Assembly (NCBI GenBank): GCA_951406725.2
Contig: OX597819.1
Location: 119,908,001 to 119,972,000 of the forward strand
Direction: 5' to 3'
From: Octopus vulgaris
Taxonomy: Eukaryota
DNA: 64,000 bases
The notes beneath the pieces were generated by a model. It did no database searches. It was not told the origin of the DNA and worked only from the letters and a program-made list of their open reading frames with translations. Position numbers and translations under genes: made by a program. Shown piece after piece: positions 19,505 through 52,972 of this stretch; within the stretch, counting starts at the first letter, position 1, and every line of letters starts with the position of its first letter.

Positions 19505-20061
19505 AATTAATCAATATAGGGTGGCAAAAAAAATTTTGTAGAATTCTTTTGCCACCAGCGGCCTAGTGGGAAAAAATTAAATAGTCATAAACCATTTTTA
19601 AGTTCAACATCAACAATCAAGGAACGGCCATAATAGGCCATTCACCCACTAGAAATAACAGCCAAAAGCTTTAACCGCAAAATAACGTTAATTCCGTAAA
19701 CCAGGAGAAAATTGAAAAACATTTACCCTGTAATTTCTTAGACGATGCACCGTTTCATCTTCTGTTTAATGGAAAACTAACCTGATTAAATTAAATCAAG
19801 CCAATCTACCATAGGCCCTTAGATTCATCAGTAAGAAATAGCCAAAACCGGAACAGATATTTTTCACGAGGCATTCTCATTGCTACCTCGTCAATATCTG
19901 ACCTAAAATTTTCAAATCGTCGCACTCGCTAAGAAATTACAGGGTAAATGTTTTTCAATTTTCTCCTGGTTTACGGAATTAACGTTATTTTGCGGTTAAA
20001 GCTTTTGGCTGTTATTTCTAGTGGGTGAATGGCCTATTATGGCCGTTCCTTGATTATTGAT
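19505..20061 (-). mobile_element. Retrozyme-like non-coding element with ~130 bp inverted arm, in (TA)n
   Basis: ~19610-19741 is the reverse complement of 19929-20060; hammerhead at 19733-19839; TA tracts on both sides. Confidence 0.75.
19733..19839 (-). ncRNA. Type I hammerhead ribozyme with large stem II insertion
   Basis: Minus strand: ATTTCTTA-CTGATGA-ATCT[~60 nt]AGAT-GAAA-CGGTGCATCG-TC^TAAGAAAT; 8 bp stem I, canonical core, GUC site. Confidence 0.8.
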
Positions 20062-20080
20062 ATATATATATATATATATA

Positions 20081-22003
20081 TAATAGAAATATTAAAATTA
20101 CTAAGTTTCTCTAAAAGAGAACAACGGCAGCGTTCCCGGAAAATAATAGTTATCGCCATACTAATATGGCATTCTTATAAAAATAAGAATAAAGCTGTCC
20201 GCTTATTAGCTCCATGAGGCCATCGCCTTAAGTTAGCTATTTGATACACAAACTGTATCCATATAACCTTTGAACAAGGGAGGTCAGTCGCTCCACACTA
20301 CTTGGCCGGCAGCTACAGACGCGTTTCGGGGTATTGCCCCTTTTCAATGCAGCGTAGCCAGACCAGTAGGTGTCGCTTCTGACAATCTCTGTTCAAAGGT
20401 TTTATTTACCTAGCTTCGGTGGGATACATCCACTTGTTTTCAATAATAGAAATATTAAAATTACTAAGTTTCTCTAAAAGAGAACAACGGCAGCGTTCCC
20501 GGAAAATAATAGTTATCGCCATACTAATATGGCATTCTTATAAAAATAAGAATAAAGCTGTCCGCTTATTAGCTCCATGAGGCCATCGCCTTAAGTTAGC
20601 TATTTGATACACAAACTGTATCCATATAACCTTTGAACAAGGGAGGTCAGTCGCTCCACACTACTTGGCCGGCAGCTACAGACGCGTTTCGGGGTATTGC
20701 CCCTTTTCAATGCAGCGTAGCCAGACCAGTAGGTGTCGCTTCTGACAATCTCTGTTCAAAGGTTTTATTTACCTAGCTTCGGTGGGATACATCCACTTGT
20801 TTTCAATAATAGAAATATTAAAATTACTAAGTTTCTCTAAAAGAGAACAACGGCAGCGTTCCCGGAAAATAATAGTTATCGCCATACTAATATGGCATTC
20901 TTATAAAAATAAGAATACAGCTGTCCGCTTATTAGCTCCATGAGGCCATCGCCTTAAGTTAGCTATTTGATACACAAACTGTATCCATATAACCTTTGAA
21001 CAAGGGAGGTCAGTCGCTCCACACTACTTGGCCGGCAGCTACAGACGCGTTTCGGGGTATTGCCCCTTTTCAATGCAGCGTAGCCAGACCAGTAGATGTC
21101 GCTTCTGACAATCTCTGTTCAAAGGTTTTATTTACCTAGCTTCGGTGGGATACATCCACTTGTTTTCAATAATAGAAATATTAAAATTACTAAGTTTCTC
21201 TAAAAGAGAACAACGGCAGCGCTCCCGGAAAATAATAGTTATCGCCATACTAATATGGCATTCTTATAAAAATAAGAATAAAGCTGTCCGCTTATTAGCT
21301 CCATGAGGCCATCGCCTTAAGTTAGCTATTTGATACACAAACTGTATCCATATAACCTTTGAACATATAACCGAAGCTAGGTAAATAAAACCTTTGAACA
21401 GAGATTGTCAGAAGCGACACCTACTGGTCTGGCTACGCTGCATTGAAAAGGGGCAATACTCCGAAACGCGTCTGTAGCTGCCGGCCAAGTAGTGTGGAGC
21501 GACTGACCTCCCTTGTTCAAAGGTTATATGGATACAGTTTGTGTATCAAATAGCTAACTTAAGGCGATGGCCTCATGGAGCTAATAAGCGGACAGCTTTA
21601 TTCTTATTTTTATAAGAATGCCATATTAGTATGGCGATAACTATTATTTTCCGGGAACGCTGCCGTTGTTCTCTTTTAGAGAAACTTAGTAATTTTAATA
21701 TTTCTATTATTGAAAACAAGTGGATGTATCCCACCGAAGCTAGGTAAATAAAACCTTTGAACAGAGATTGTCAGAAGCGACACCTACTGGTCTGGCTACG
21801 CTGCATTGAAAAGGGCAATACCCCGAAACGCGTCTGTAGCTGCCGGCCAAGTAGTGTGGAGCGACTGACTCCTTGTTCAAAGGTTATATGGATACAGTTT
21901 GTGTATCAAATAGCTAACTTAAGGCGATGGCCTCATGGAGCTAATAAGCGGACAGCTTTATTCTTATTTTTATAAGAATGCCATATTATATGGCGATAAT
22001 ATT
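20081..22003. mobile_element. Retrozyme-like array: ~3.5 direct copies of a 363 bp unit, then ~1.75 inverted copies, in (TA)n
   Basis: Unit starts at 20081, 20444, 20807, 21170; inversion junction ~21366-21371; one hammerhead per unit; no ORF. Confidence 0.88.
20312..20353 (-). ncRNA. Type I hammerhead ribozyme, U3:A8 core variant (also 20675-20716 and 21038-21079 on -, 21437-21478 and 21800-21840 on +)
   Basis: GCTGCA-TTGAAAA-GGGG caata CCCC-GAAA-CGCG-TC^TGTAGC; palindromic stem III ACGCGT; stem I extends further. Confidence 0.82.
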
Positions 22004-49937: not shown

Positions 49938-50496
49938 CACTTGCGTCGGAAATTAATTAGCACTTCTCAAATTTCTACATTTTCTTACATTTTCTTAATT
50001 TAATTAACTTATTATCAGAAACGAACTCGTTTTTAATCAAAAATTTATTAAAACATATCCCAGCACACCACATAATTGTTATTAATCGTGAAATTTAGTC
50101 AATATCTTGTTGCTCCTACTTTGGCAGCAATGACAGCTGCTACGCGGGTCGGCATGCTGTCTATGAGTGCCTGCAGGTACTGTGCAGGGATGGCCCCTCA
50201 TGCAGCAAGAAGTGCCCCAAACAGCTCGTGTCGGTTCCTGCACATTCAAATCCCTACCCAATCGACTCCAGAGGTTCTCAATAGGGTTCAGGTCAGGTGA
50301 CTGGCCAGCACGTACTCCTCGCCATCAAAGAGGTATCCCGTACTATCTCAACGTACTTTGCTGCGTTGATGTTGCCTTCGACGGCATAGAGCCGCCCAAC
50401 ACCACTGTAGCTGAACGCCCCTCATACCATCAGACCACCCCCACCATGCTTCATGGTGAGCAAATCAAGGGTGCTAATTAATTTCTGACGGTAGTG
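49938..50496 (-). mobile_element. Internally deleted Tc1-like transposon
   Basis: TIRs CACTTGCGTCGGAAATTAATTAGCAC / GTGCTAATTAATTTCTGACGGTAGTG with TA on both sides; SPDLNPIENLW and DSMPTRVAAVIAAK..TRY on the minus strand. Confidence 0.88.
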
Positions 50497-52127
50497 TATA
50501 TACATAAAATGTTAAACATTTTATGGAGAGAGATTATCAAATTTGGAAATAGTATATTTGTTTCGAATGAAATAGAGCGGAAACGGAGAGGAATCGCTGG
50601 AGCAATTATAATAGTGTTCTATTTCATCGTAGACTGGAGGTTAATCTTGTTTCTAATGCGTAACAATGACTGAGATTAAAATACACTCCTTGAACGAGAC
50701 AACAGCCGACCGTAGAATTACATCCCCGTTATTGTTGGAACTCATTTACATTTGAATGAACTGGAAAAAAATGAAATGAACAGTTTTATTCAACCATGAC
50801 CAAACCGAAGCTGAGTGCAATATCCTAACCATTACGCCATTAAAATATTCGATTTTTGAAACGTTTATATTCTAGTTATAAATATTTCCAAGTGCCACTA
50901 AAGTTGGAGTGAAATAAGTTTAACAGAAATCTACTCAGTGTGGAATACAAAAACAATATATATTTGAAGAAAAGTCTTTATGTCGTGTCTATGTCGACTA
51001 AATACGTATGCGATTTTTTTTTTTTAGCAATAATGAATGTGTTTATTCAGTCTTTTTGAAATAGTTTAAAAAGTAAAATTTTATATGAAATATAAGTAAA
51101 CAAACCAACAGCAATAAATTTCTTTGGAAATGATGTTTTATTTATACGTATAGAGATAAGAATAAGTTGGAAATACTGTTGCTGTTATTATTTAGATTAA
51201 ATTGCTAACAGACCATCGTTATAGGAATGTACATAAACAAATAATGAGCTATAAGTCTTTTCAGTAAGAAAAAACATAATGCTTTCAATAATTTCAAAGA
51301 GAATTTTACGGAAATAAGTTTGAATTATCGTTTGTGTTATTATTTCTGTTAAATATATTATCACACCCTGAAACAATTTAATAAAGAATTTAGAAATTAT
51401 ACAGCGTAGATGAAACTCATAAAGTTTATTTGCTATAGTGTTTTAAAGAAATTTGCTTAAACAGTTATATTCATCGTGTCTATTTTGACTTTATAATAAC
51501 AGATTTTGAACGAAATCTCAAGTCATTACAACGAAACACTGAGGCAAGTGCTTTGGAAAATATGGCCTTAACGTCTGCGCTGAGTAGTTATGGTGTGCTT
51601 TATCAATGTATCGGAAATTTCTCGGCCACTTACTTTCAATTACCTCTCGGACGAATTTCAACGGCGGTCTCGTTTAGTATTGTCCGCAACCACTATGTTA
51701 GAAAGACTTCTACTTTGCTCTGTGCGTATCGTCAGTTGGAAATCTTCTTTATTCAGGCGTCTAGAGTGTAACTTCAGAGAATAAATTCATTTATTATCTA
51801 TAATTATCGCGGCAAGATGGGAGAGCACGGCAGACAAGAACTTTAGCCACATTTCTTTGGACTAATTTTGTTTTGAGTTCATATCCCTCTACGAGTTCAG
51901 CGTTATCTTTCAGCTCTAGAGTTGTATATATATATATATATATATATATATATAGTGACTGTGTGGTAAGTAGCTTGCTTAATAACCACATGGGTTCATT
52001 CCCACTGCGTGGCACCTTGGGCAGGTGTCTTCTACTATAGCCTCGGGCCGACCAAAGCCTTGTGAGTTGATTGGGTAGATGAAAACTGAAAGAAGCTAAT
52101 CGTATATATGTATATATATATATATAT

Positions 52128-52972
52128 ATAACATAAGGGGGATCAGCCATCTGAATGTGGCTAGGGACAGGGCGGGTTAGTGGGGGGGGTTACTGATGCA
52201 TTTAGCCCCAGGCGATCATCGACGTCACCAGAAGGACCGACACCATCTCGGTGTCCTTGCCAGCCTGCAAAGGGAGATCAGCCTCCCCGAAGATACGGAT
52301 ACTAAATACGGACCGGTTTCGAGGTATTTGCCTCTTATCAACGCATGGTAAGTACCGTTTTTCGTTGAGGGACTTCCTCTACAGGCTGGATATATATGGA
52401 TTTTCACAGTAACCACAGTCACTGATGTGCAAAAACCGTTCAACAACAATAATAAATCTCTGAGCGAGATATAAACAGTAACTGCTCTATAACATAAGGG
52501 GGATCAGCCATCTGAATGTGGCTAGGGACAGGGCGGGTTAGTGGGGGGGGGTTACTGATGCATTTAGCCCCAGGCGATCATCAACGTCACCAGAAGGGCT
52601 GACACCATCTCGGTGTCCTTGCCAGCCTGCAAAGGGAGATCAGCCTCCCCGAAGATACGGATACTATATACGGACCGGTTTCGAGGTATTTGCCTCTTAT
52701 CAAAGCATGGTAAGAACCGTTCTTCGTTGAGGGACTTCCTCTACAGGCTGGATATATATGGATTTTCAAGGTAACCACAGTCACTGATGTAGAAAAACCG
52801 TTCGACAACAATAATAAATCCCTTCTGGTGACGTTGATGATCGCCTGGGGCTAAATGCATCAGTAACCCCCCCCACTAACCCGCCCTGTCCCTAGCCACA
52901 TTCAGATGGCTGATCCCCCTTATGTTATAGAGCAGTTACTGTTTATATCTCGCTCAGAGATTTATTATTATT
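52128..52972. mobile_element. Retrozyme-like array: ~1.9 direct copies of a 361-362 bp unit plus ~150 bp inverted arm
   Basis: AACATAAGGGGGATC at 52130 and 52491; inverted segment 52821-52970; one hammerhead per unit; TA flanks. Confidence 0.86.
52295..52358 (-). ncRNA. Type I hammerhead ribozyme, U3:A8 core variant (second copy 52657-52720)
   Basis: ACGG TACT tacca TGCG-TTGATAA-GAGG caaata CCTC-GAAA-CCGG-TC^CGTA ttt AGTA t CCGT. Confidence 0.82.

Follow-up and report, generated by a model that had tools for sequence, protein, structure and literature searches.

Six non-coding inserts that carry type I hammerhead ribozyme motifs were analysed in a 64,000-nucleotide stretch of the Octopus vulgaris genome, here called the window (GenBank assembly GCA_951406725.2, contig OX597819.1, positions 119,908,001 to 119,972,000; G000:C6:119908001-119972000 in our handles for the 2.8-Gb assembly). 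The inserts were named A-F in window order, and each belongs to a dispersed repeat family. Judging from their sequence, these families are likely to be non-autonomous retroelements of the non-LTR retrozyme type (LTR, long terminal repeat) that are mobilised in trans by endonuclease-positive Penelope-like elements (EN+ PLEs) of the same genome. The evidence for this comes from the anatomy of the insertions, which matches that of intact PLEs, and from the variants among tandem units, which point to the copying of a single monomer.

Six hammerhead-bearing inserts in the window

A first-pass annotation, made from the letters of the window, had placed six inserts at TA-type microsatellites. Its coordinates agreed with ours within a few bases except for the start of C, which lies near 25087. 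The spans are 19503-20061 (A), 20080-22005 (B), ~25087-25299 (C), 37388-38178 (D), 38828-40211 (E) and 52128-52972 (F). Tandem periods of 363, 601, 644 and 362 bp were recovered in the window with Tandem Repeats Finder (TRF) and a repeat finder, as had been reported for four of the inserts, and A (493 bp) and C (~531 bp) were found to be tandem elsewhere in the genome. Inverted arms are present in A, B, E and F, the number of inserts for which they had been claimed. In the following list, short and long denote the two fixed 3' ends of each family, which are described below.

19503-19929, minus strand: family A left arm, 0.87 of the 493-bp monomer; 3' end at the long site, at a (TA)n tract
19733-19839, minus strand: type I hammerhead of family A with CUGAUGA, a long stem II and GUC; cut predicted between 19741 and 19740
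19929-20061, plus strand: right (inverted) arm of family A, whose 3' end is at the short site and runs into a (TA)n tract that it shares with B
20080-21365, minus strand: left arm of family B, 3.54 units of 363 bp, with the long 3' end at 20080
20312-20353, 20675-20716 and 21038-21079: family B left-arm hammerheads, UUGAAAA, U3:A8; stem III ACGCGU
21370-22005, plus strand: right arm of family B with 1.75 units, whose short 3' end runs into (TA)n
21437-21478 and 21800-21840: family B right-arm hammerheads
25087-25299, plus strand: 5'-truncated piece of the ~531-bp family C monomer, ending at the short site
25088-25153: family C hammerhead, A10.1.A11.1; window copy with an extra A after GAAA
37388-38178, minus strand: single arm of family D, 1.32 units of 601 bp, flanked by a (TA)n tract on each side, with the short 3' end at 37388
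37574-37664: family D hammerhead; predicted cut between 37580 and 37579
38828-39389, minus strand: family E left arm, short 3' end; hammerhead copy near 39107 with altered stem I
39388-40211, plus strand: right arm of family E, 1.28 units of 644 bp, with its end at a minor site
39675-39787: family E right-arm hammerhead, CUGAAGA, A10.1.A11.1, GUU; predicted cut after 39782
52128-52823, minus strand: left arm of family F, 1.93 units of 361/362 bp, with the short 3' end
52306-52346: family F intact hammerhead, UUGAUAA, U3:A8; stem III ACCGGU; a second copy has a stem I mismatch
52820-52972, plus strand: right (inverted) arm of family F, whose long 3' end runs into (TA)n

Hammerheads were searched with a strict type I descriptor that allowed covariation at 3:8 and a long stem II, a search that the first-pass annotation had suggested. 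Eight matches were found in the window (one in A, five in B, one in D and one in F), compared to a single match in 30 block-wise dinucleotide-shuffled windows (0.03 per window). The first descriptor, limited to C3:G8, was too narrow: it returned two sites and missed B and F. C and E were found only when an A.A mismatch at 10.1/11.1 was allowed, and E additionally needs GUU cleavage. Both A10.1.A11.1 (C, E) and GUU (E) are the family consensus and not damage to a copy. The claim of one type I hammerhead per unit was upheld for all six families, but some of the window copies are damaged: the C copy has the extra A, and stem I is broken in the second F unit and in the left E arm. The A10.1.A11.1 variant was found in no fewer than four motifs that are unrelated to one another (L033, L127, families C and E; L numbers denote loci), and three of these have GUU cleavage. 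A scan of the window against Rfam at E<=1 gave 141 matches, none of which was a hammerhead; most were miRNA-type models that matched microsatellites or the E palindrome.

Core conservation across genomic copies, which the earlier proposal had named as a test together with stem covariation, was observed, as was covariation within the core. At twelve core positions in families B-F, 6 of 1392 cells vary compared to 1218 of 51509 elsewhere, in a tally where the copies are not independent and the C background is inflated by a microsatellite. For D alone, the core varies in 1 of 300 cells compared to 3.4% elsewhere, and N7 is freely variable. An array from the unselected sample (L188), with 88% identity to F, carries C3:G8 in place of the U3:A8 of F, and this switch reads as a double compensatory change. 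B-like sequence was present in contigs of four sequencing runs bearing four organism labels; these are assembled contigs only, with the RNA status guessed for three, and they cover 28 of 28 B-monomer bins. No RNA source was on record for the B monomer, and the contigs, which carry no information on strand, ends or circles, are taken as neutral on expression. Among the matches listed from those contigs, the six listed variants in the B hammerhead are all outside the core.

In predicted folds, stems I and II appear in the window copies of A, B, D, E and F, and the damaged window copy of C gave neither of these hammerhead stems. The z-scores of the short hammerhead folds were modest (-0.5 to -2.6). 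Circular monomers were predicted to fold better than shuffles, with z-scores of -3.6 to -7.7 (12 shuffles each).

Families across the genome

All six families are dispersed over many contigs, with monomers of 361-644 bp and a GC content of 0.31-0.48. The units had been expected to be multi-copy, and first-look candidates ranged from 1098 to 3610 per family, of which 40 were scored. The analysed loci were the top scorers to the full monomer and are, therefore, biased to young, long copies. Identities below are those of the best full-length copies, and the two fixed 3' ends are given in nt after the cut site on the hammerhead strand.

Family A: monomer 493 bp; 1098 candidates; identity ~98-100%; 3' ends 132/238
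Family B: monomer 363 bp; 1136 candidates; identity 97-99%; 3' ends 175/238
Family C: monomer ~531 bp with an internal (TA)n; 2463 candidates; identity 86-91%; 3' ends ~158/258
Family D: monomer 601 bp; 3610 candidates; identity 90-98%; 3' ends 192/302
Family E: monomer 644 bp; 1424 candidates; identity 96-99%; 3' ends 189/308
Family F: monomer 361 bp; 1851 candidates; identity 92-97%; 3' ends 182/227

The inserts had been described as lacking an open reading frame (ORF), and this was borne out on monomer concatemers of all six families, in which the longest ATG frame was 38-95 amino acids and no coding frame was found. No LTR-like arrangement was seen in the six families, for which no search for a primer-binding site (PBS) or polypurine tract (PPT) was made. 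The inserts had also been called largely unrelated in sequence. This holds in that there are six families, but A, C, D and E have a common motif of 16-21 nt shortly before one end. The motif, TTTG[GA]CTG[CT]TATTTC[TC]A, is found in the window at 19666, 20004, 25240, 37456, 38057, 38897 and 39891 and has nine matches in a 200-kb sample. In these four families it lies just ahead of the short end and is often a hairpin arm, and it is also found in unrelated repeats. It may be a protein-binding site.

A random sample of twenty 10-kb stretches at round coordinates contained 11 hammerhead motifs at five loci, including a weak one and one of PLE type, compared to 0-2 in five shuffles. By rough extrapolation from only 200 kb, the hammerhead repeat class may number tens of thousands of loci. 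All fetched DNA (952,580 bases, mostly targeted) contained 11 further motif rows outside A-F and PLE1 (a resident PLE family described below), several of them interrelated.

Anatomy of the insertions

Arm counts were made for A, B, D, E and F (145 arm ends and 50 pairs of arms); C was left out because its internal (TA)n splits alignments. Among the 145 arm 3' ends, 134 lie no more than 7 nt from one of the two fixed sites. The association with TA tracts was confirmed, with (TA)4 within 20 nt of 124 of the 145 arm ends and a background of 3.6%. Inverted two-armed insertions pair a short with a long end in 41 of 50 cases (A 10/10, B 14/15, D 7/8, E 4/9, F 6/8). The two arms overlap by 1-18 nt in 36 of the 50. 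Arms reach 5.98 units, and those of C, D and F are mostly shorter than two units. The 5' ends are scattered, with 6 of 207 within 5 nt of the cut site compared to 4.8 expected. 5' ends at the cut site, which were seen in the window copies of A and D, were rejected as a feature since they are at chance level overall. Target-site duplications are unreadable in (TA)n, and one clear duplication of 9-11 bp was found at a non-TA site (L080).

Some insertions are stacked. A and B share one (TA)n tract (window 20062-20079), and at L011, L060, L095 and L184 further arms are nested at the tract of an earlier insertion. In a window picked post hoc, the signal for a hairpin 15-35 nt ahead of the start sites was modest (p about 0.003) and is a lead only. 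CCCT(T)A-like words, which may be due to chance, precede several start sites (3' ends of A, C, D, F and PLE1) and recall the reverse-complement telomeric stretches described for EN-minus PLEs (PMC8557442).

Resident Penelope-like elements

Two remnants of PLEs are present in the window.

25330-26105, plus strand: broken PLE 3' remnant, inverted arm; GIY-YIG pieces at 25382-25715, 46% to an intact PLE
63246-64000, plus strand: broken copy of PLE1; reverse transcriptase (RT) region, 82-87% at the amino acid level

A minimal hammerhead-like motif lies near 26003-26040 within the first remnant. The second extends beyond the window end and terminates at the short site of its family in (TA)n. At 300-650 the window has a small element flanked by (TA)n tracts. 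It carries inverted GAAACCGGUA motifs and may be a further PLE-end fragment.

PLE1 was traced from the RT remnant. It is a young family with a 4433-bp unit, in which a 784-amino acid RT and GIY-YIG frame is intact at many loci (G000:C9:10671372-10685984, covering L176/L177, and L178-L186). The frame matches RVT_1 (E 3.5e-8) and GIY-YIG (E 0.003, below its cut-off), is overlapped by an upstream ORF of 446 amino acids, and has a Cys linker that points to a place near the Neptune/Nematis type (PMC8557442). PLE1 carries a U3:A8 hammerhead and forms head-to-tail arrays of its 4433-bp units, up to 3.2 copies. Its insertions end at 847 or 881 in (TA)n, each arm using one of the two ends in 6 of 6 complete two-armed insertions. 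PLE2, also young and intact (L213-L222), has a 4271-bp unit with an RT and GIY-YIG frame of 775 amino acids, 47% identical to PLE1, downstream of a 454-amino acid frame. It ends at 677 or ~723, one per arm in 3 of 3 pairs. The sole hammerhead-like motif in the 3' region of PLE2 is atypical and was not called by the descriptor. First-look PLE candidates numbered 8164 and 12965.

The proposed involvement of PLEs gained support from this comparison because the fixed two-site 3' ends used one per arm, the (TA)n targets, and the tandem-plus-inverted arms of A-F match those of intact PLE1 and PLE2. In the comparison with these two PLE families, short words and (TA)n were all that monomers A-F had in common with PLE1 or PLE2, and no homology was found. 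They are not untranslated regions (UTRs) of the two families; a UTR origin had been named as a finding that would count against the proposal. No autonomous carrier of the motif common to A, C, D and E was found on examining PLE1 and PLE2. By tblastn, no PLE protein match was found inside any of the six families; matches were restricted to the flanks at 6 of 165 loci (L047, L007, L087, L092, L022 and L023), plus the window remnant in L121. The lack of homology to PLE1 and PLE2 and of PLE coding sequence in the monomers suggests that A-F would be passengers mobilised in trans. Another possible explanation is that they are truncated 3' UTR or pseudo-LTR (pLTR) fragments of unsampled autonomous PLE families, given that just two families among so many first-look candidates were examined. 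The head-to-tail arrays of up to 6 units without coding sequence in A, B and E, and the confinement of PLE protein to flanks, argue against this. It is already largely refuted for A, B and E, and we find it hardly credible.

Variants among units and the template

Variants were compared in two-armed insertions at positions covered by at least three units. Of the 164 variants, 37 were shared by every unit and 118 were confined to one; 6 were missing from a single unit, and the remaining 3 were intermediate. All-unit variants span both arms in 32 of 37 cases, and 11 of these 32 were private to their insertion among those sampled. For A, divergence was 0.0024 within an arm, 0.0018 between arms and 0.0051 between insertions; the corresponding values were 0.0084, 0.0114 and 0.0166 for B, and 0.0042, 0.0088 and 0.0141 for E. 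The all-or-one variants and the arm divergences suggest that both arms and all units came from one monomer sequence and were later privately mutated. The many singleton variants argue against smoothing by the assembly.

Repeated copying of one monomer, probably a circle, would fit these variants better than unequal crossover. Under the latter model, which is discussed in bioRxiv 10.64898/2026.07.22.740005, single PLE-end monomer fragments insert and then expand locally. This is the standard model of satellite birth, and the 1-2 units seen in most arms of D and F agree with it. We consider it very improbable, since variants of intermediate frequency are rare (9 of 164), insertion-private variants span both inverted arms, and the two arms, each of them multimeric, end at fixed sites that differ.

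The template could also be an uncleaved multimeric read-through transcript that is mobilised by PLEs, with the hammerhead serving another step. Unprocessed RNA was the main substrate in vitro (PMC11167929), and the read-through of cut sites and the missing pile-up of 5' ends fit this explanation equally, as does one heterogeneous B array. Yet a new mutation in a source unit would be expected as a singleton or in 2 of n units across the arms, not in n of n, whereas the all-unit variants across both arms (32, with 11 private) stand against 3 intermediate ones. Also, 5' truncation would shorten arrays in each generation, yet arms of 4-6 units exist. A multimeric template is, thus, unlikely in our view. 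Less likely still is a cleaved linear monomer on which the RT jumps precisely from the 5' end to the 3' end of the same molecule, making a virtual circle. Such a jump predicts the same all-or-one pattern and requires no ligase, but the cut-site junctions are seamless in the family tallies, no 5' ends cluster there, and circles have been demonstrated for other animal retrozymes (PMC7229834).

For PLE1, divergence rises from 0.0004 inside arms to 0.0019 from arm to arm and 0.0052 from insertion to insertion. At one PLE1 locus the 3.2 units are nearly identical, and a variant private to it is present in 3 of 3. Eight PLE1 regions had the same all-or-one trend, but with five intermediate variants and one region with 15 singletons.

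Proposed mechanism

Copying of a monomer circle by a PLE enzyme would proceed as follows. A tandem array would be transcribed, and its hammerheads would cut out monomers; those of B and F, with a 1-bp stem III, probably act as dimers, as established knowledge of hammerheads suggests. The monomer would then be closed into a well-paired circle. The presumed PLE RT/GIY-YIG protein would cut (TA)n DNA, and cDNA would be primed at two fixed internal RNA sites 130-310 nt past the cut, one per DNA end. The RT would continue past the ribozyme junction, copying anything from part of a unit to six units. Two 5'-truncated cDNAs would join head to head, often at short microhomology, or one arm would be fixed. 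The footprints of priming, run-through and joining are observed in the insertions. More tentatively, and with somewhat less than even confidence, we suggest that the PLE RT complex uses two start sites on one ribozyme-made circle and rolls from both (TA)n cut ends, and that autonomous PLEs of 4.3-4.4 kb do likewise. The pLTRs, tails, tandems and inversions would then be rolling-circle RT products, a process exploited by more than a dozen unrelated circles that offer structure only.

Several observations weigh against the copying of a monomer circle by a PLE enzyme. One B array is heterogeneous, with four variants at intermediate frequency, and variants found in a subset of units recur at other loci in 8 of 69 cases for B and 20 of 76 for E. 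The samples are small, with 10-16 arrays per family. E is less clean than the other families, with four of its nine pairs canonical, and in two F insertions the ends of both arms lie close to the short site. The core is not set apart by shared polymorphisms alone (0/60 vs 92/2257, p=0.17), and the figure for variation outside the core in C is inflated by its microsatellite. No significant sequence similarity ties the monomers to PLE1 or PLE2 as their partner. Hammerhead cleavage is not needed for PLE insertion in vitro according to PMC11167929, whose authors favour a multi-copy mRNA, and cleavage is reported in only one of nine retrozyme dimers tested in bioRxiv 10.64898/2026.07.22.740005.

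Comparison with known systems

Non-LTR retrozymes, their circular RNAs and a PLE-driven rolling model have already been published (PMC7229834, PMC4209133, PMC7761336). The 2026 preprint cited above (bioRxiv 10.64898/2026.07.22.740005) argues for a PLE origin of vertebrate retrozymes on the basis of co-occurrence and pLTR similarity and attributes tandems to unequal crossover; its four invertebrates are three insects and a coral. The PLE tail, which is the stretch between two internal RT start sites, was shown in vitro and called unique to PLEs (PMC11167929, 2024). A 2020 review describes animal retrozymes as having no motif that reveals the mobilising retrotransposon (PMC7761336). The squid genome paper gives only a count of 235 Rfam hammerhead matches. 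No cephalopod retrozyme study was found in the literature searched, and Repbase, Dfam, subscription journals or supplements may list these families.

Like the metazoan non-LTR retrozymes described from coral, mussel, axolotl and newt satellite 2, A-F have tandem, non-coding, low-GC monomers (31-48%) with one type I hammerhead each, a weak or palindromic helix III, a well-paired predicted circle, and PLEs that co-exist in the genome. By every sequence-level criterion that was tested, A-F behave like non-LTR retrozymes. They differ in the long stem II and in the A10.1.A11.1 and GUU variants. Their monomers, up to 644 bp, exceed the 150-450 bp given in PMC7229834 and lie inside the 51-972 bp of the preprint. 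The two-site tail, the two-armed inversion and (TA)n targeting, all present in A-F, are absent from the published descriptions that we compared, and the words "inverted" and "microsatellite" do not occur in the main text of PMC7229834. Circles have been demonstrated for metazoan retrozymes (PMC7229834), whereas A-F are known here from genomic sequence alone.

EN+ PLEs with a CxxxxxCxxC-type linker (Neptune/Nematis type) share with A-F the partial tandems, an inverted 5'-truncated arm, a tail between two 3' ends, a (TA)n bias, and a type I hammerhead upstream of the ends with the U3:A8 core variant (PMC8557442, PMC11167929, PMC4209133). Unlike these PLEs, A-F have no ORF and no sequence homology to PLE1 or PLE2, and their tails are 45-119 nt, compared to 30-40 nt in the PLE literature, 34 nt in PLE1 and ~46 nt in PLE2. 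Plant LTR retrozymes are likewise non-autonomous hammerhead retroelements and have a circular RNA intermediate, but they carry type III hammerheads, LTRs, a PBS and PPT, and 4-bp target-site duplications and have a Gypsy partner (PMC7229834, PMC7761336), in contrast to the type I hammerheads, tandem units and PLE-type signature of A-F. The class itself is, thus, already known, and the insertion-level footprints of A-F are without counterpart in the retrozyme descriptions compared.

Other features of the window

Fragments of the 3' ends of non-LTR retrotransposons lie beside (TAA)n tracts at 5573-6816, 13125-14195, 14784-15500 and 45542-46159, and two of the four have weak zf-RVT matches. They may resemble TAA-targeting R4/Dong elements. 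A 1.6-kb element at 32457-34049 with 193-bp inverted ends (82%), which by eye resembles a decayed Tc1/mariner DNA transposon, is unrelated to the retrozymes. Recurrent SINE-like repeats are found at 22305-22680, 23427-23522, 23813-23908 and 24431-24526. By eye, three have a tRNA-like head, in which ARAGORN called no tRNA.

Implications

The link between PLEs and retrozymes has so far come from co-occurrence and pLTR similarity, and the insertions of A-F carry the PLE-specific footprint of two start sites. Their variant pattern bears on the three published models of tandem formation, namely a circular template, a multi-copy mRNA and unequal crossover. The blank Rfam scan illustrates that standard annotation can miss a repeat class that possibly numbers tens of thousands of loci here. 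This genome offers very young retrozyme families together with two PLE families that have many intact frames and mapped start sites, and the published in vitro PLE assay (PMC11167929) could test partner and template directly in these elements. The value of A-F lies in a genomic footprint that ties them to PLE enzymes and to a monomeric template, which makes them useful for tests of mechanism.

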